From Escherichia coli (GTDB taxonomy: Bacteria; Pseudomonadota; Gammaproteobacteria; Enterobacterales; Enterobacteriaceae), in assembly GCF_044324875.1 (NCBI RefSeq), contig NZ_CP172185.1: 64,000 bases of DNA; one strand, given 5' to 3'. Positions 55,444-64,000 of this stretch are shown piece after piece. Every line of letters begins with the position of its first letter. Positions within the stretch are counted from its first letter, which is position 1. Below the pieces are notes generated by a model that ran no database searches, was not told where the DNA came from, and worked only from the letters and a program-made list of their open reading frames with translations. Position numbers and translations under genes: made by a program.

Positions 55444-56877
55444 ATGAAAGTAACGCTGCCAGAGTTTGAACGTGCAGGAGTGATGGTGGTTGGTGATGTG
55501 ATGCTGGATCGTTACTGGTACGGCCCCACCAGTCGTATCTCGCCGGAAGCGCCGGTGCCCGTGGTTAAAGTGAATACCATCGAAGAACGTCCGGGCGGCG
55601 CGGCTAACGTGGCGATGAATATCGCTTCTCTCGGTGCTAATGCACGCCTGGTCGGGTTGACGGGCATTGACGATGCAGCGCGCGCGCTGAGTAAATCTCT
55701 GGCCGACGTCAACGTCAAATGCGACTTCGTTTCTGTACCGACGCATCCGACCATCACCAAATTACGGGTACTTTCCCGCAACCAACAGCTGATCCGTCTG
55801 GATTTTGAAGAAGGTTTCGAAGGGGTTGATCCGCAGCCGCTGCACGAGCGGATTAATCAGGCGCTGAGTTCGATTGGCGCGCTGGTGCTCTCTGACTACG
55901 CGAAAGGTGCGCTGGCAAGCGTGCAGCAGATGATCCAACTGGCGCGTAAAGCGGGCGTTCCGGTGCTGATTGATCCAAAAGGCACCGATTTTGAGCGCTA
56001 CCGCGGCGCTACGCTGTTAACGCCGAATCTCTCGGAATTTGAAGCTGTTGTCGGTAAATGTAAGACCGAAGAAGAGATTGTTGAACGCGGCATGAAACTG
56101 ATTGCCGATTACGAACTCTCGGCTCTGTTAGTGACCCGTTCCGAACAGGGTATGTCGCTGCTGCAACCGGGCAAAACGCCGCTGCATATGCCAACTCAGG
56201 CGCAGGAAGTGTATGACGTTACCGGTGCGGGCGACACGGTGATTGGTGTCCTGGCGGCAACGCTGGCGGCGGGTAATTCGCTGGAAGAAGCCTGCTTCTT
56301 TGCTAATGCGGCGGCAGGCGTAGTGGTCGGCAAACTGGGGACATCCACGGTTTCGCCGATCGAGCTGGAAAACGCAGTACGTGGACGTGCAGATACCGGC
56401 TTTGGTGTGATGACCGAAGAGGAACTGAAGCTTGCTGTGGCGGCGGCGCGTAAACGCGGCGAAAAGGTGGTAATGACCAATGGCGTCTTTGACATCCTGC
56501 ACGCCGGGCACGTCTCTTATCTGGCAAATGCCCGTAAACTGGGTGACCGTTTGATTGTCGCCGTCAACAGCGATGCTTCCACCAAACGGCTGAAAGGGGA
56601 TTCCCGCCCCGTTAACCCTCTCGAGCAGCGTATGATTGTGCTGGGTGCACTGGAAGCGGTCGACTGGGTGGTGTCGTTTGAAGAAGACACGCCGCAGCGC
56701 CTGATCGCCGGGATCTTGCCAGACCTGCTGGTGAAAGGCGGCGACTATAAACCAGAAGAGATTGCCGGGAGTAAAGAAGTCTGGGCCAACGGTGGCGAAG
56801 TGTTGGTGCTCAACTTTGAAGACGGTTGCTCGACGACCAACATCATCAAGAAGATCCAACAGGATAAAAAAGGCTAA
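55444..56877 (+). CDS. hldE: Bifunctional D-glycero-beta-D-manno-heptose-7-phosphate kinase / heptose-1-phosphate adenylyltransferase HldE
   Basis: Track ORF 477 aa [37 protein letters not shown]... Confidence 0.9.
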
Positions 56878-56956
56878 CCGGAAAGCGGTTCACAGATCTC
56901 GCTTCGAACCTGGCAGGCCTATTGACGCTGTTTTTTTTCAACCTAAAGTAAAGGAA

Positions 56957-57100
56957 CAAGGGTGAGGGAGGATTTCTCCCCCCTCTGATTGGCTGTTAAT
57001 AAGCTGCGAAACTTACGAGTAACAACACAATCAGTATGATGACCAGCTTCATCATAACCCTTTCCTTATACAAGGCCCCTTCTTCGGGAGGGGCTTTCCC
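56957..57100 (+). ncRNA. sibE: Sib-family antisense sRNA (antitoxin), hldE-proximal copy; ends approximate
   Basis: Promoter TTGACG(56922)-N16-TAAAGT(56944); terminator GCCCCUUC-UUCG-GGAGGGGC + UUU at ~57076-57100; fully overlaps the opposite-strand ibs ORF; symbol assigned by position, from memory. Confidence 0.55.
56996..57055 (-). CDS. ibsE: Ibs-family 19-aa hydrophobic type I toxin peptide (MMKLVIILIVLLLVSFAAY)
   Basis: Reverse-strand ATGATGAAGCTGGTCATCATACTGATTGTGTTGTTACTCGTAAGTTTCGCAGCTTATTAA; too short for the ORF track; which ibs paralog is a positional guess. Confidence 0.65.
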   Translation of the reverse strand: MMKLVIILIVLLLVSFAAY

Positions 57101-57332
57101 GTTTCAGCCCCTTGCTGACTCCCCGATTGTTGATGAGCGCCAGACCCCGCGCAATGCTTTCCCTGATGCAGTTTTGCCTTCCCCGAGCCGTCACGCAAAA
57201 TGCTGCAACAGCCTGATCATTTGCACCTTTTAGCGGAACGCAGATATAAAAAATCCCCGGCTTTTTGGGCCAGGGATGTGGGATAGAGAAACCTTCTTGA
57301 CGCTGATTTTTTTTCAACCTAAAGTAAAGGAA

Positions 57333-57478
57333 CAAGGGTAAGGGAGGATTTCTCCCCCCTCTGAATTGGTTGTTAATAAGCCTGGAAACTTACTAGTAAC
57401 AACACAATCAGTATGATGACGAGCTTCATCATAACCCTTTCCTTCTATAAGGCCCCTTCTTCGGGAGGGGCTTTCCCG
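57333..57478 (+). ncRNA. sibD: Sib-family antisense sRNA (antitoxin), yqiK-proximal copy; ends approximate
   Basis: Promoter TTGACG(57297)-N17-TAAAGT(57320); same UUCG-loop terminator at ~57452-57478; symbol assigned by position, from memory. Confidence 0.55.
57373..57432 (-). CDS. ibsD: Ibs-family 19-aa hydrophobic type I toxin peptide (MMKLVIILIVLLLVSFQAY)
   Basis: Reverse-strand ATGATGAAGCTCGTCATCATACTGATTGTGTTGTTACTAGTAAGTTTCCAGGCTTATTAA; differs from copy 1 at residue 17 (A vs Q) and by synonymous changes. Confidence 0.65.
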   Translation of the reverse strand: MMKLVIILIVLLLVSFQAY

Positions 57479-57671
57479 TTTCAGCCCCCTGCTGACTCCC
57501 CGATTGTTGATGAGCGCCAGACCCCGCGCAACGCTTTCCCAGAGGCAGTTTTCCCTTCCCCGAGCGGTCACGCAAAATGCTGCAACAGCCTGATCATTTG
57601 CACCTTTTAGCGGAACGCAGATATAAAAAATCCCCGGCTTTTTGGGCCAGGGATTATTCATAGAAGAGGGT

Positions 57672-59333
57672 TTACTCTGTTTTTTCTTCGACGGGAGTTG
57701 TTGAGGTTAAGGGTGAAGTCAATGCCGCCAGCGAGCCGCCAGAAACACCGATTTCATTGAGCAAGGAGTCAATCAGTGGTGCCTGTGTGCGGTAAGAAAG
57801 GGCGGCAGACAATGCCTGTTCTGCCAGGTTTCCGCCACTAACGCTGCCTGATGCCGCATTCCCCGCAGCGCCACCTCGGTTTAATCCATCGACCTGAATA
57901 ATCTTGATGCCGTCAATGGACTTCATCGGCTCAACGGATTTCTCTATTACCGCAGGTAATGATTGTAATAGCGCCAGTTTGAATTTAAGGCTGGTTTGCT
58001 CGTCAGAAAGTACGTTGATAGCGTCGTTCAGCGCACGTTGCGCTTCTGCTTCCGCCAGACCCTTTTTACGCGTAGCTTCGGCTAACTCAACGATTGCCGC
58101 CGCCTGCATCTCTGCGGCTTCTTTTTCAGCTTTCGCCCGGACGGTCAGTTCGACTGCTTTGGTTTCCGCGTCCTGCGCGGCAGCGATTAGGGCAACTTGT
58201 TTAGCACGATCGGCTTCTGCGGTCTGGCGAGTGGTTTCAACGTTTTGCTGGGCGCTTACCGCTTCTGCAAGTGCAAGGTTGGCACGCGCTTCCGCTTGTG
58301 ACTGCTGTTCCGATTTGGCGGCAATAGCGATCGATTTCGTCTGGTTGGCGATTTCGGTGACCTGCTGCTGTTCGATCTCTTTAATGCGAACTTCACGTTC
58401 AGCTTCAACTTTTCTGGAACGGACGGCCTGTTCGCGGTCGATTTCCGTTTCCTGAATCTGTCGTTCAGCCAGAATTCGCGTCTGCTCTGCTTCCCGACGA
58501 CGCTCGGCCTCAAAAGCCGCAATTTTCGCATTCTGCTCAGCGGTACGGGTTTTAACCTGCTGCTCCTGCTCAAGCGTCATAAACGCTTCTTGTTGTTCAA
58601 TCTCCAGCTTGCGCGAAAGCGCATCACGGTTTTTCTCACGCACCGCAACTTCTACATCCTGTTCAACTTCGTTACGTTCGCGACGACGGCGCTCCGTCTC
58701 CTGCGTCAGCTTGGTTAAACCTTCGGCGTCAAAGGCGTTGTTAGGATTGAAATGTTCTTTCGACGTCTGGTTAAAGTTGGTAAGTGAAACGCTTTCCAGT
58801 TCCAGGCCGTTTTTCGACAGATCTTCAGCTACGGTATTTTGTACTCCCTGCACGAAGTTCTCGCGGGTATCCTGTAACTCATGCATGGTCATTTGTGCAG
58901 CTGTTGCACGGAGGGCATCGACAAATTTATCTTCAACCAACATACGTAAGTCTTCAGGCGACAGGGTGCGTTGTCCCAGCGTCTGGGCGGCGGTGGCAAT
59001 CCCTTCAACTGAAGGTTTTACCCGCACAAAGAAAGCGACCACGACATCGACGCGCATACGATCTTTCGTAATCAGGCTATCAATGGTTGAGCGGCTGACT
59101 TCCAGCTTCAGGGTATTCATATTGATGGGGATTATTTCATGAAAGATCGGCATCACGATTGCGCCACCGCTCATTACCACTTTTTGCCCACCTAAACCAG
59201 TACGAACAAAAGCTTGCTCTGCCGAAGCGCGACGATAGAGCCTGGCGAAAATAATTCCAATAATAAACAGAATGCATACGGCAATAATTGCGGTAAACAT
59301 CCAGGAGGGCACAGAATTAACAATATCATCCAT
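57672..59333 (-). CDS. yqiK: Flotillin-like SPFH/band-7 inner membrane protein YqiK with long Ala/Glu-rich coiled coil
   Basis: Track ORF 553 aa MDDIVNSVPSWMFTAIIAVCILFIIGIIFARLYRRASAEQAFVRTGLGGQKVVMSGG... Confidence 0.85.
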   Translation of the reverse strand: MDDIVNSVPSWMFTAIIAVCILFIIGIIFARLYRRASAEQAFVRTGLGGQKVVMSGGAIVMPIFHEIIPINMNTLKLEVSRSTIDSLITKDRMRVDVVVAFFVRVKPSVEGIATAAQTLGQRTLSPEDLRMLVEDKFVDALRATAAQMTMHELQDTRENFVQGVQNTVAEDLSKNGLELESVSLTNFNQTSKEHFNPNNAFDAEGLTKLTQETERRRRERNEVEQDVEVAVREKNRDALSRKLEIEQQEAFMTLEQEQQVKTRTAEQNAKIAAFEAERRREAEQTRILAERQIQETEIDREQAVRSRKVEAEREVRIKEIEQQQVTEIANQTKSIAIAAKSEQQSQAEARANLALAEAVSAQQNVETTRQTAEADRAKQVALIAAAQDAETKAVELTVRAKAEKEAAEMQAAAIVELAEATRKKGLAEAEAQRALNDAINVLSDEQTSLKFKLALLQSLPAVIEKSVEPMKSIDGIKIIQVDGLNRGGAAGNAASGSVSGGNLAEQALSAALSYRTQAPLIDSLLNEIGVSGGSLAALTSPLTSTTPVEEKTE

Positions 59334-59359
59334 TATTAAATTTCCTTTTGATTAATAAA

Positions 59360-59989
59360 TTACAATATTTGGGGCCAGGGATTGTTATCCGCCAAATATC
59401 GCGTTGCAGAAAGTCGGCAAATAATTAACACTTTGTCTCCTTTAGTGAAAATTTTTCCTTCTTCAGGCTCCAGTAGTAAATAATGTATTTGGCCAAATTG
59501 ATCGGTGAGTTTTCCTTCGCAGGGATTACCTGAAGTCGCTTGATGTCCGGTAATTAACGCCATGCTACCAATATATTCTTCTTCTGTAATAGCTGAACTA
59601 TGGTCGCGTGGAATCCAGGGCGCAACTATTTTACCGGTATAATGCACCGCAATAATCGTAAACAGTAAACTGACAGGAACCACGAACAGGTTCGAGAGTG
59701 GTGATTGCCAGACCATGATGCAGGTATGCTGCAACAGGATGCCAATAAGACCAAAAAAACCAGCCAGTAAGCAGAGAACGACGAGAGCTGGCAATCTTCC
59801 GATATTGAGATAATGAAGTGCCTGGCTAATATGACCTGTGGTTATGGAATCATAATGGTCAAGATGTGCATCAAGAGCACCGGAGAGCATATGACCGCAG
59901 ATAAGCGCAAAAATTTCTAAAAGGCCGATCAACAGTACAAAGGAAATAGCGAAAAGATAAGGGGTGTTATAGTCGGCGAATAAAATCAT
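59360..59989 (-). CDS. yqiJ: NfeD-like inner membrane protein YqiJ (partner of YqiK)
   Basis: Track ORF 209 aa [35 protein letters not shown]... Confidence 0.85.
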
Positions 59990-60257
59990 ATGTCACTCCA
60001 ATGTCCATTTAGTGACGCAATATTTACTTTAGGATAGTTTCCTTGCTTACATTTATCTTTGTTAATAATAACACATGTTAGAGAAGTTCTGGAAGAGAAA
60101 GTCTTTTAATATGGTTTTTTATTTTTCACTAAAAAGTGTGATCGGGGACAATATATTTACGCACGTTATGTTTAAAGGCACTACACTGATTGGGGAATAC
60201 TGAAATCAGAAAAAGCATATGGCCTTAAAAGGTATGCGATAACCGGAGGATGTGCTT

Positions 60258-60458
60258 ATGGATCATAGTCTTAATTCTTTAAATAATTTCGATTTCCTGG
60301 CGCGTAGTTTTGCCAGAATGCACGCAGAAGGTCGCCCGGTCGATATTCTGGCCGTTACTGGTAACATGGATGAAGAACATAGAACCTGGTTTTGCGCACG
60401 TTATGCCTGGTATTGCCAACAGATGATGCAAACCAGAGAACTTGAATTAGAACACTGA
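60258..60458 (+). CDS. glgS: GlgS (surface-composition / glycogen-associated small protein)
   Basis: Track ORF 60252..60458 begins at GTG; conserved start ATG 60258 ([29 protein letters not shown]...) with SD GGAGGA; 66 aa. Confidence 0.85.
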
Positions 60459-60464
60459 TATTAC

Positions 60465-60490
60465 GGGCCGTCTGGCCCGTTTTTGTGTTG
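60465..60490 (+). terminator. Intrinsic terminator after glgS (sits between convergent glgS and ubiK stops)
   Basis: GGGCC-GTCT-GGCCC followed by GTTTTTGTGTT. Confidence 0.65.
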
Positions 60491-60492
60491 CT

Positions 60493-60792
60493 TTATTCTG
60501 CTTTATCAATAGGCGGGATAGCCGGAGGAGATTGAAGATCTGCTACCGAATTATTGCGCGCTTCCAGTTCACTGATGCGCTGCTCCAGTAATGCCAGTTT
60601 CTCACGAGTCCGTAACAGGACTTGCGTCTGTACGTCGAATTCTTCGCGGCTCACCAGATCGAGACGCGTCAGCTGCGCTTGTAGGGTTTGGCGGATTTTT
60701 TTCTCCACATCTTCCCCGAACTCCCTGATTCCTTTAGGCATTGATTCGTGAACCTGGCGAGCGATTTGCTCAATTTTTTTCGGGTCAATCAT
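60493..60792 (-). CDS. ubiK: Ubiquinone biosynthesis accessory factor UbiK (YqiC), coiled-coil
   Basis: Track ORF 60493..60852; start taken at ATG 60790-60792 ([29 protein letters not shown]...). Confidence 0.8.
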
Positions 60793-60904
60793 TGTAGTTT
60801 CCCTGTACTGATAGGTGTTGAATGCCATTGTAGTGCGATAAGGGTAAGTCATAAACCAGAATTATGTGAAGCTATGCGTTGCTGCCGCTAATCATTAGCG
60901 TTAT

Positions 60905-61165
60905 AGTGAACCCGCTTATTCTCAGGGCGGGGCGAAATTCCCCACCGGCGGTAAATCAACTCAGTTGAAAGCCCGCGAGCGCTTTGGGTGCGAACTCAAA
61001 GGACAGCAGATCCGGTGTAATTCCGGGGCCGACGGTTAGAGTCCGGATGGGAGAGAGTAACGATTCTGTCGGGCATGGACCCGCTCACGTTATTTTGGCT
61101 ATATGCCGCCACTCCTAAGACTGCCCTGATTCTGGTAACCATAATTTTAGTGAGGTTTTTTTACC
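60905..61165 (+). promoter_or_regulatory. FMN riboswitch (RFN element) leader of ribB
   Basis: Conserved RFN segments AGGGCGGGGCGAAATTCCCCACCGGCGGTAAA ... AGCCCGCGAGCGC ... GGACAGCAGATCCGGTGTAATTCCGGGGCCGACGGTTAGAGTCCGGATGGGAGAGAG upstream of ribB ATG. Confidence 0.8.
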
Positions 61166-61819
61166 ATGAATCAGACGCTACTTTCCTCTTTTGGTACGCC
61201 TTTCGAACGTGTTGAAAATGCACTGGCTGCGCTGCGTGAAGGACGCGGTGTAATGGTGCTTGATGATGAAGACCGTGAAAACGAAGGCGATATGATCTTC
61301 CCGGCAGAAACCATGACCGTTGAGCAGATGGCGCTGACCATTCGCCACGGTAGCGGTATTGTTTGCCTGTGCATTACTGAAGATCGCCGTAAACAACTCG
61401 ATCTGCCAATGATGGTAGAAAATAACACCAGCGCCTATGGCACCGGTTTTACCGTGACCATTGAAGCGGCTGAAGGTGTGACTACCGGTGTTTCTGCCGC
61501 TGACCGTATTACGACCGTTCGCGCAGCGATTGCCGATGGCGCAAAACCTTCTGATCTGAATCGCCCGGGCCACGTTTTCCCACTTCGCGCGCAGGCAGGT
61601 GGAGTACTGACGCGTGGCGGTCATACTGAAGCAACTATTGATCTAATGACGCTGGCAGGCTTTAAACCGGCTGGTGTGCTGTGTGAGCTGACTAATGACG
61701 ATGGCACGATGGCGCGTGCACCAGAGTGCATTGAGTTTGCCAATAAACACAATATGGCGCTCGTGACTATTGAAGATCTGGTGGCATACCGTCAGGCACA
61801 TGAGCGTAAAGCCAGCTGA
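61166..61819 (+). CDS. ribB: 3,4-dihydroxy-2-butanone-4-phosphate synthase RibB
   Basis: Track ORF 217 aa [42 protein letters not shown]... Confidence 0.9.
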
Positions 61820-61851
61820 AAACCGCTGCTTAATTTACTGCCTTAATCAAG

Positions 61852-61886
61852 AAACCGAAGTTGTAGCAGGCTTCGGTTTTTATTTT
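61852..61886 (+). terminator. Intrinsic terminator after ribB
   Basis: AACCGAAG-TTGTAGCAGG-CTTCGGTT followed by TTTTATTTTT. Confidence 0.65.
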
Positions 61887-62080
61887 TCCCTGCTATGCAA
61901 GATGTTAATTCCGCTTCTCTTTCTATGAGAAAATTTCATTAATATCAGGCATTCTTTTTCATTATGATCAAAATCATATAATTGTTCCGTTATTATGCGA
62001 CCATATGAATATATCCGAAAAAGGATATGTGAAATTTATGCGCTAAATGTTTAGTATTGTTAAATATTAAGGGTAAAAGG

Positions 62081-62251
62081 ATGTTTATCGCCTGGTACTG
62101 GATTGTATTGATTGCTCTGGTTGTGGTGGGTTATTTCCTGCATTTAAAACGTTATTGTCGGGCGTTTCGCCAGGATAGAGACGCACTGCTTGAAGCGCGG
62201 AACAAATACTTAAACAGTACGAGAGAAGAGACAGCCGAAAAGGTAGAATAA
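62081..62251 (+). CDS. Candidate small single-TM membrane protein (56 aa)
   Basis: Track ORF 62057..62251 begins at TTG; ATG at 62081 gives MFIAWYWIVLIALVVVGYFLHLKRYCRAFRQDRDALLEARNKYLNSTREETAEKVE; AT-rich upstream region; own hairpin terminator 62269-62310. Confidence 0.4.
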   Translation: MFIAWYWIVLIALVVVGYFLHLKRYCRAFRQDRDALLEARNKYLNSTREETAEKVE

Positions 62252-62308
62252 GACTTTAGTGAAGCTGACAGAAGTTGTCCATGCGCTGGACAACTTCTGA
62301 TGTTGCTT

Positions 62309-63082
62309 TTAACCAATTCCCGCCGTTTGTAGCAGCACTAAACTGAATCCCATCACTGACATTCCACATAGTACGCCATAGCTGGGGTTATTATTAGGGT
62401 CAATCTCTTTGGCGAGCGGCATTAATTCATCAACCGAGAGCGCCACCATAATTCCTGCAACCGCCGCCATGATTGCCGCCATGACCACCGGGGAAATCAT
62501 GCTACCGAGGATTAACCACGCCAGCACACCACCAAGAATTTCTGCCAGTCCAGAAATCCCCGCCCACAGAATCGCGGTACGTTTCGATCCTGTTGCAGCG
62601 TAAACCGGCCCTGCAACGGCCAGACCTTCAGGAATATTGTGCAACGCTACGGCCAGGGCGATACCAAATCCCAGCTCCAGGTTGCTGCTCGCCGTGACAA
62701 AGGTGGCAATCCCTTCCGGGAAGTTATGCAGACTGATACCGAGAGTGAGCAGAATGGCTGTGCGCTTGATCGATTTTGGCAACGGCTGCACCGATTTTTG
62801 CATTAAATCCTGCGGATGCGCATGTGGCAACATGCGGTCCAGGCCAAAATAGCCAAGCAGACCGAAGATAAACATTCCATAACCCAACACAGGCGACATT
62901 CCTTCAGCTGCTAGTGCGGCAGGAAGCATTTCCATTAATGAGATGAGCAACATGATCCCCGCCGCAAATCCTAGCGAAAACGCCAGTAAGCGGTTCGAGG
63001 GTTTTTGCCCGAGAACGCCGAGAAACGCGCCAATAAACGTGGCTGCCCCCGCCAGTATGGTCAGAATGAGAGGTACTGACAT
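62309..63082 (-). CDS. zupT: Zinc transporter ZupT (ZIP family)
   Basis: Track ORF 62309..63124; start at ATG 63080-63082 ([29 protein letters not shown]...), 257 aa. Confidence 0.85.
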
Positions 63083-63224
63083 CGACAACTCCTTATAAAT
63101 CTTCACCTTCAGGCAGATCGTCAAAATAACTGATGATCATCATCATTGTTATCCGGGTTCTTACTCCGCCGAACAAGCGTATTGTGAGGATATCAAAATG
63201 ACACCTTTAGTTAAGGATATCATC

Positions 63225-64000
63225 ATGTCTTCAACACGTATGCCAGCATTGTTTTTAGGTCACGGTAGTCCGATGAACGTGCTGGAAGATAATTTGTATA
63301 CCCGCAGCTGGCAGAAGTTGGGGATGACATTGCCACGCCCGCAAGCGATTGTGGTGGTTTCGGCTCACTGGTTTACCCGTGGAACAGGAGTGACCGCGAT
63401 GGAGACGCCGCCCACGATTCATGACTTTGGTGGCTTCCCGCAGGCGCTGTACGACACGCATTATCCTGCTCCGGGTTCGCCTGCGCTGGCACAGCATCTG
63501 GTTGAGCTGTTAGCGCCGGTCCCGGTGACGCTGGATAAAGAAGCCTGGGGCTTTGACCACGGCTCGTGGGGCGTGCTGATTAAGATGTATCCTGACGCCG
63601 ATATCCCGATGGTGCAGTTGAGTATCGACAGTAGCAAACCTGCTGCCTGGCATTTCGAAATGGGGCGCAAACTGGCAGCGCTGCGAGATGAAGGAATAAT
63701 GTTGGTCGCCAGCGGTAACGTGGTGCATAACCTGCGCACAGTGAAGTGGCACGGTGATAGTTCACCGTATCCGTGGGCGACGTCGTTTAATGAGTATGTG
63801 AAAGCGAATCTGACGTGGCAAGGGCCGGTAGAGCAGCATCCTCTGGTGAATTATCTCGACCATGAAGGTGGCGCGTTATCGAACCCAACGCCAGAGCACT
63901 ATCTGCCGTTGTTGTATGTCTTAGGTGCGTGGGATGGGCAGGAGCCAATTACCATTCCGGTCGATGGTATAGAAATGGGCAGTTTAAGTATGTTGTCGGT
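63225..64000 (+). CDS. ygiD: 4,5-DOPA dioxygenase extradiol-like protein YgiD, N-terminal ~258 codons (runs off window end)
   Basis: ATG 63225 with SD AAGGAT; translation MSSTRMPALFLGHGSPMNVLEDNLYTRSWQKLG... open to the window end; not in track because incomplete. Confidence 0.8.
   Translation, partial: MSSTRMPALFLGHGSPMNVLEDNLYTRSWQKLGMTLPRPQAIVVVSAHWFTRGTGVTAMETPPTIHDFGGFPQALYDTHYPAPGSPALAQHLVELLAPVPVTLDKEAWGFDHGSWGVLIKMYPDADIPMVQLSIDSSKPAAWHFEMGRKLAALRDEGIMLVASGNVVHNLRTVKWHGDSSPYPWATSFNEYVKANLTWQGPVEQHPLVNYLDHEGGALSNPTPEHYLPLLYVLGAWDGQEPITIPVDGIEMGSLSMLS

Follow-up and report, generated by a model that had tools for sequence, protein, structure and literature searches.

The window (the whole 64,000-nucleotide stretch of Escherichia coli DNA analysed here) contains two convergent genes, glgS and ubiK (yqiC), whose stop codons face each other across a 34-bp gap (Table 1). 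This arrangement had been described by an earlier reading made from the letters alone (the sequence-only reading), and the coordinates and open reading frames agree with it. GlgS is identified by the NCBIfam equivalog model NF002793 (148 bits against a cut-off of 105), and the gene is so annotated in strain M7424, which is 100% identical to the window at this point. UbiK is identified by NCBIfam NF047835 (COG2960), with 150.7 bits against a cut-off of 100. The NF047835 match spans residues 1-89 of the window protein, the model itself having 91 positions; the part of UbiK that differs between E. coli haplotypes begins at residue 78, and only the last ~10 residues lie outside the match. When the window is searched by tblastn with K-12 YgiL, YqiG, YqiH and YqiI, no fimbrial gene is found between ubiK and glgS. 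Together, ribB and ubiK form a conserved pair with two fimbrial sites on its flanks, and it is these two sites that are compared below.

An Rfam scan of positions 56000-64000 returns nothing in the gap; its only matches are the FMN riboswitch upstream of ribB and two SIB RNAs. The latter are two tandem copies of a SIB RNA/Ibs type I toxin-antitoxin (56922-57070 and 57297-57447) between yqiK and hldE. They resemble the sibD/sibE layout of K-12, with only 93% identity between the second copy and its K-12 counterpart.

The gap does contain a single hairpin. The sequence-only reading had drawn it as GGGCC-GTCT-GGCCC followed by a T-run, and it is present as the sole hairpin in the gap, but the real stem is slightly longer than drawn. 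At 60463-60480 it forms seven pairs, six of them G-C, closing a loop of four, and the downstream sequence is TTTTTGTGTT. On the + strand its folding energy is -18 kcal/mol (z = -4.4), none of 200 shuffled sequences folds as well, and a consensus scan marks it as resembling a terminator. The stem also forms on the - strand, at -17.3 kcal/mol, but there it is followed by UAAUAUC, without a U-tract. The combination that defines a Rho-independent terminator, a G+C-rich stem-loop with a U-tract, is found on the + strand and not on the - strand. Because the U-tract is present on the + strand only, the hairpin is predicted to be a canonical Rho-independent terminator for glgS and would be at best a weak one for ubiK. 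In 14 aligned junctions from Escherichia, Citrobacter, Salmonella, Raoultella and Klebsiella, CGGGCC-N4-GGCCCG is invariant and the loops vary.

Table 1. Features of the glgS-ubiK-ribB region, in window coordinates
Feature	Position	Strand	Remarks
glgS	60258-60458	+	66 aa + stop; cell-surface composition regulator; from the ORF list
glgS-side diverged flank	60416-60489		glgS 3' end and terminator
glgS stop codon	60456-60458	+	TGA
Convergent intergenic gap	60459-60492		34 bp; empty site for the K-12 'Yqi-like' ygiL-yqiGHI operon
Putative intrinsic terminator of glgS	60463-60485	+	stem ACGGGCC/GGCCCGT, loop GTCT, then TTTTT
Haplotype-specific segment	60490-60561		72 bp; no K-12 match; blastn breakpoints
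ubiK (yqiC)	60493-60792	-	99 aa + stop, from the MIDPKK start; C-terminal tail of apparently ancestral type; from the ORF list
ubiK stop codon	60493-60495	-	TTA on the + strand, TAA on the - strand
ubiK-side diverged flank	60562-60664		ubiK nt ~130-232
FMN riboswitch	60914-61062	+	upstream of ribB; Rfam RF00050, 120.9 bits
ribB	61166-61819	+	TIGR00506, 288 bits; from the ORF list
Second empty site (ribB-yqiD gap)	61818-61962		145 bp; 5,487 bp with the Yqi/EA-I operon there in B2 ExPEC

The K-12 counterpart and the two alleles in E. coli

In the annotation of K-12 MG1655 (NC_000913.3) the gene order is ubiK (b3042)-ygiL-yqiG-yqiH-yqiI-glgS (b3049), and yqiG is a pseudogene, split by IS2I with insC5/insD5. 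The sequence-only reading had placed a fimbrial cluster carrying an IS2 here in K-12, and the annotation bears this out: glgS and ubiK are not directly adjacent in MG1655, the cluster intervening. The window has, as had been proposed, the empty-site configuration, for it aligns with MG1655 on both sides of the cluster and the cluster itself is missing. By blastn, window 59000-60489 is 97.8% identical to the glgS side and window 60562-62000 is 97.7% identical to the ubiK side, and the sequences on either side of the window junction are the orthologues of those that border the cluster in K-12.

The breakpoints between the two arrangements lie at 60489/60490 and at about 60561/60562, the latter within ubiK. 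Of the 34-bp junction, the part up to 60489 matches the glgS-side flank of the island; homology resumes only at 60562, inside the coding sequence. The intervening 72-bp segment comprises 2 bp of gap sequence before the ubiK stop, that stop codon and the final ~22-23 codons of the gene; its K-12 counterpart measures 6,637 bp, or 5,301 bp when IS2 and its 5-bp target duplication are subtracted.

Beyond this locus, the window and MG1655 are collinear throughout, at 96-98% identity, and the only other large difference is ~1.9 kb of extra sequence between fadH and ygjK. Both features support the sequence-only reading in its view that the source is not K-12, and they identify it as E. coli. The fadH-ygjK extra (19035-20969), absent from MG1655, contains a 513-aa ORF (19180-20721, - strand) with three internal repeats, each of ~130 aa.

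We surveyed 5,426 complete RefSeq E. coli genomes. An 801-bp probe across the empty junction is contiguous in 2,062 of them (38%), including O157:H7, O145:NM and ST131-type (JJ1887) strains, and in the remaining genomes it splits at window position 60489. The K-12-specific ubiK tail with the ubiK-ygiL spacer is found in 3,362 genomes (62%) and the yqiI end in 3,357. Since the two classes add up to 5,424, the ubiK-glgS site is essentially biallelic. Its designation as a strain-variable insertion point is therefore right as to variability, but 'insertion point' is a loose term for a K-12 state that looks like a recombinational replacement. The window-type 72-bp tail was also tried as a marker of the empty site and dropped; megablast finds it in 1,101 genomes, an undercount against the 2,062 empty-site genomes that arises because B2 tail variants differ at ~5 of 68 positions and lack a 28-bp exact word, and longer queries were used instead.

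The same genomes bear on the provenance of the window. Over the 25 kb of window 36000-60999 the best match among the 5,426 complete genomes is only 98.9% identical, and the 2.9 kb of window 59790-62662 are 100% identical to strain M7424; either the source lineage is missing from the genome collection or it may be a mosaic over 36000-60999. In addition, a 386-bp piece of chromosome corresponding to window 59790-60175 (the 5' part of yqiJ and the region upstream) occurs in ~33 plasmid records. On the mcr-3.4 plasmid pSEV4_3 (locus L086, 4001-4386) this piece is bracketed by IS1A and IS5, and it looks like an IS-mediated capture ending at window position 60175.

Outgroups, mosaic flanks and the origin of the alleles

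A search of a species-representative genome collection with the window UbiK gave 80 enterobacterial loci, in which we then looked by tblastn for the four fimbrial proteins of K-12 and for RibB, UbiK, GlgS and YqiJ. In every glgS-bearing locus of the 80, glgS converges on ubiK, and tblastn detects no fimbrial genes between the two in any of these glgS-bearing loci. Convergence of yqiC on glgS has also been described in S. Typhimurium (PMC3107778). The ubiK-glgS spacer measures 28 bp in E. albertii, 34 bp in Escherichia sp. (L003), 32-33 bp in eight Citrobacter loci and 31 bp in two Raoultella loci, and it is longer in Klebsiella spallanzanii (58 bp), Salmonella enterica subsp. arizonae (73 bp) and Klebsiella indica (94 bp). 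Since these outgroups converge on the same hairpin with no fimbrial genes between, the empty junction appears to be the ancestral enterobacterial layout and not a deletion.

The polarity of the UbiK C-terminus is the same. The two E. coli haplotypes encode unlike C-termini, which differ from residue 78 on. UbiK proteins of Citrobacter, Salmonella, Enterobacter and Kosakonia (98-101 aa) have tails of the form ...PAPAIPPVDPQE or close variants, and that of Escherichia sp. L003 (99 aa) has ...SPPAIPPVDKAE. These outgroup tails match the window form and not the K-12 form with its ...PETLPPTL sequence, and the K-12 tail appears to be the derived one. In Salmonella YqiC the predicted coiled coil covers residues 49-79 (PMC3107778). 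As the difference starts at residue 78, most of the variable tail lies past the coiled-coil helix; a functional effect of the tail difference would not be expected.

Divergence between the window and K-12 is mosaic, rising from ~0-1% to 17-20% within the ~75-100 bp that adjoin the indel. In ubiK, 1 of the first 130 nucleotides differs, nt 130-232 differ at 18 of 102 positions, and the rest of the gene, with about 50% differences, is unalignable. In glgS there are no differences over nt 1-152, and 17 of the last 86 aligned nucleotides on the glgS side, terminator included, differ. Counted in 100-bp bins, mismatches number 0-3 farther out and reach 13 (glgS side) and 17 in the indel-touching bins only. 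Within the diverged ubiK flank the window type differs from B2 strains at 3-5 of 102 positions and from Escherichia sp. L003 and E. albertii at 11 of 102, whereas the K-12 type differs from every Escherichia at 14-18 of 102. The window-type flank behaves, by these distances, like a vertically inherited allele. The GC content is 40.1% in the K-12 island, 47-50% in its K-12 flanks and 52% in the window.

On this evidence we hold it highly probable that the window carries the ancestral, unoccupied junction allele and that the K-12-type allele was overwritten by an imported Yqi-like operon, probably via recombination. A low-GC segment of ~5.3 kb encoding cryptic 'Yqi-like' chaperone-usher fimbriae would have overwritten the junction in ~62% of E. 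coli, K-12 included. Homologous recombination with a divergent donor, with one crossover near nt 155 of glgS and the other near nt 130 of ubiK, would have brought it into an ancestral E. coli, from which the allele would then have spread. In K-12-type strains the 3' end of glgS with its terminator would thus be foreign, and so would the 3' ~57% of ubiK, from nt ~130 through the stop codon, including the different tail. The diverged flanks, the 40% GC and the lack of flanking repeats argue for homologous import rather than site-specific insertion. Because no donor with the order ubiK-yqi-glgS occurs among the 80 enterobacterial loci retrieved, we infer the import from the divergence patterns; the Yqi homologues of other genera in this set all lie on the other side of ribB. 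Alternatively, the raised flank divergence could come from long-term suppression of recombination beside an old indel. As for the window lineage, its allele would fit two histories, one in which the island was never acquired and one in which recombination brought the empty allele back.

Ancestral emptiness with import into K-12-type strains has to be set against a secondary loss, in which the ancestor had ygiL-yqiGHI and the window lineage deleted the operon, leaving a 34-bp scar. Such a loss would fit the presence of the operon in 62% of complete genomes and would be cheap, as the operon is cryptic and IS-disrupted in K-12, and acquisition followed by loss has been invoked for chaperone-usher operons generally (Wurpel et al., PMC3559732). 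A simple deletion, however, cannot rebuild an outgroup-type UbiK tail, an outgroup-type glgS 3' end or the exact spacing of 28-34 bp that is found in E. albertii, Escherichia sp. and Citrobacter. Moreover, the window has no trace of the 17-20% diverged K-12-type flanks, and the two census classes (2,062 + 3,362 = 5,424) leave no class that combines K-12-type flanks with an empty site. We consider secondary loss improbable, and loss via recombination with an empty allele would still leave that allele ancestral.

Even less probable is a reading of the gap or its hairpin as an attachment site at which an integrase or transposase inserted the fimbrial cluster site-specifically. The variability of the junction among strains, the low GC of the occupying DNA and the IS2 inside the K-12 cluster would agree with it, but that IS2 is internal to yqiG and not at the island boundary, and the breakpoints fall inside two coding sequences with graded, homologous-but-diverged sequence on each side, which is the signature of homologous replacement. 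The MG1655 annotation has no integrase or tRNA gene at the island, and of direct or inverted repeats bracketing it (locus L001, 4072-10708) none were found, the inverted repeats present belonging to IS2 only; the island ends thus have neither flanking direct repeats nor terminal inverted repeats. The class of site-specifically integrated genomic islands was rejected for the K-12 allele, which fails every defining feature tested (integrase/recombinase, tRNA/att, direct repeats). An assembly error or a collapsed repeat is scarcely credible as the cause of the missing operon: we found no point in its support, the identical junction recurs in 2,062 independently finished genomes, and the junction region matches M7424 exactly over 2.9 kb.

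A second fimbrial site between ribB and yqiD

The gap between ribB and yqiD lies ~1.3 kb from the ubiK-glgS site, and the window is contiguous with K-12 there, so an operon is absent from this site as well. A distant-mode search with K-12 yqiH-yqiI returned 903 genomes whose best match is only 60-80% identical, with chaperone matches of 67-69% identity among the matches listed. In GN03590 (bloodstream) and N17 (CSF) the matched gene is part of a chaperone-usher operon of four genes that lies between yqiD and ribB, and ubiK-glgS is empty. By position and strain association this operon is the 'Yqi' or ExPEC adhesin I (EA/I) cluster, whose carriers include UTI89, 83972 and an APEC O2:K1 strain. 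Antao et al. (2009, PMC2771359) reported EA/I to be missing from K-12 and O157:H7, and 'Yqi' (B2) and 'Yqi-like' (A, B1, D, E) fimbriae have been described as closely related, clade-specific and mutually exclusive, with different positions (Wurpel et al. 2013, PMC3559732). At the amino-acid level, EA/I and K-12 Yqi-like proteins are 60% identical for the subunit (YgiL), 55% for the usher (YqiG), 49% for the chaperone (YqiH) and 38% for the adhesin (YqiI).

A balanced 2,873-bp probe that spans the two sites is contiguous, with both of them empty, in 1,080 of the 5,426 genomes (19.9%), and the EA/I segment is present in 994. The census thus amounts to ~62% Yqi-like, ~18% EA/I and ~20% neither, and at most about ten genomes could hold both. 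The window belongs to the last of these groups, both of its sites being without a chaperone-usher operon of usher, chaperone, major subunit and adhesin.

Outside E. coli, Yqi-related operons occupy the ribB-side site in Citrobacter, Enterobacter, Pseudocitrobacter and K. spallanzanii, the usher of the last being 70% identical to the EA/I usher. In Escherichia sp. L003, C. werkmanii and C. amalonaticus this site is unoccupied. From this distribution the ribB-yqiD site looks like a hotspot across genera. The distance between yqiD and ribB is ~3.6 kb in Salmonella arizonae and some Citrobacter, with no Yqi homologue detected there. The yqiD-side flank of the EA/I site also appears to be unusually diverged, as at the ubiK-glgS site, since YqiD of EA/I-bearing B2 genomes has only 69% protein identity to the window YqiD (L084 7982-8152 against window 62081-62251) and the DNA of B2 EA/I genomes is 93% identical to the window from 61963 onward against 98% on the ribB side.

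Taking the two sites together, we somewhat favor a more specific reading in which K-12 UbiK and GlgS are chimeric from an import whose donor was more than genus-level divergent, the window keeps the native tail, and ribB-ubiK is bracketed by two alternative sites in an either/or/neither relation (~62/18/20%).

Relation to known Yqi-type loci

The window junction is the ordinary unoccupied form of a known strain-variable fimbrial locus, and variable carriage of Yqi and Yqi-like operons is already published. What the present comparison adds is the probable ancestry of the empty state, the true breakpoints, the apparently chimeric ubiK and glgS of K-12 and the either/or/neither relation with the EA/I site, all of them small increments on published knowledge. 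The main value is for annotation, which can assign the window to a non-K-12 E. coli with neither of the Yqi-type operons. The pair of sites is also a useful typing marker, EA/I being associated with ExPEC and Yqi-like with K-12-type strains. Finally, the C-terminus of K-12 UbiK is haplotype-specific and probably xenologous, which is relevant to C-terminal constructs and to allele comparisons.

Compared with the K-12 ygiL-yqiGHI ('Yqi-like') locus, the window is collinear in yqiK-yqiJ-glgS and in ubiK-ribB-yqiD-zupT but lacks all four fimbrial genes and IS2I, and its UbiK has 99 aa where that of K-12 has 96, with unlike tails. The EA/I strains UTI89, 83972, GN03590 and N17 share with the window the empty ubiK-glgS junction and the type of UbiK tail; they differ in having a 5.5-kb four-gene operon between yqiD and ribB, where the window has 145 bp. 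The pairs of Salmonella, Citrobacter and E. albertii have gene order, orientation and the invariant CGGGCC-N4-GGCCCG hairpin in common with the window. A window-like UbiK tail, ...PAIPP(V/I)D..., is found in Salmonella and in most Citrobacter loci, and the E. albertii tail has the form ...TPPVDKSE and is 4 codons shorter. Where these outgroup pairs depart from the window, in loop sequence and in a spacer of 28-94 bp, the variation is that of ordinary orthologous divergence.
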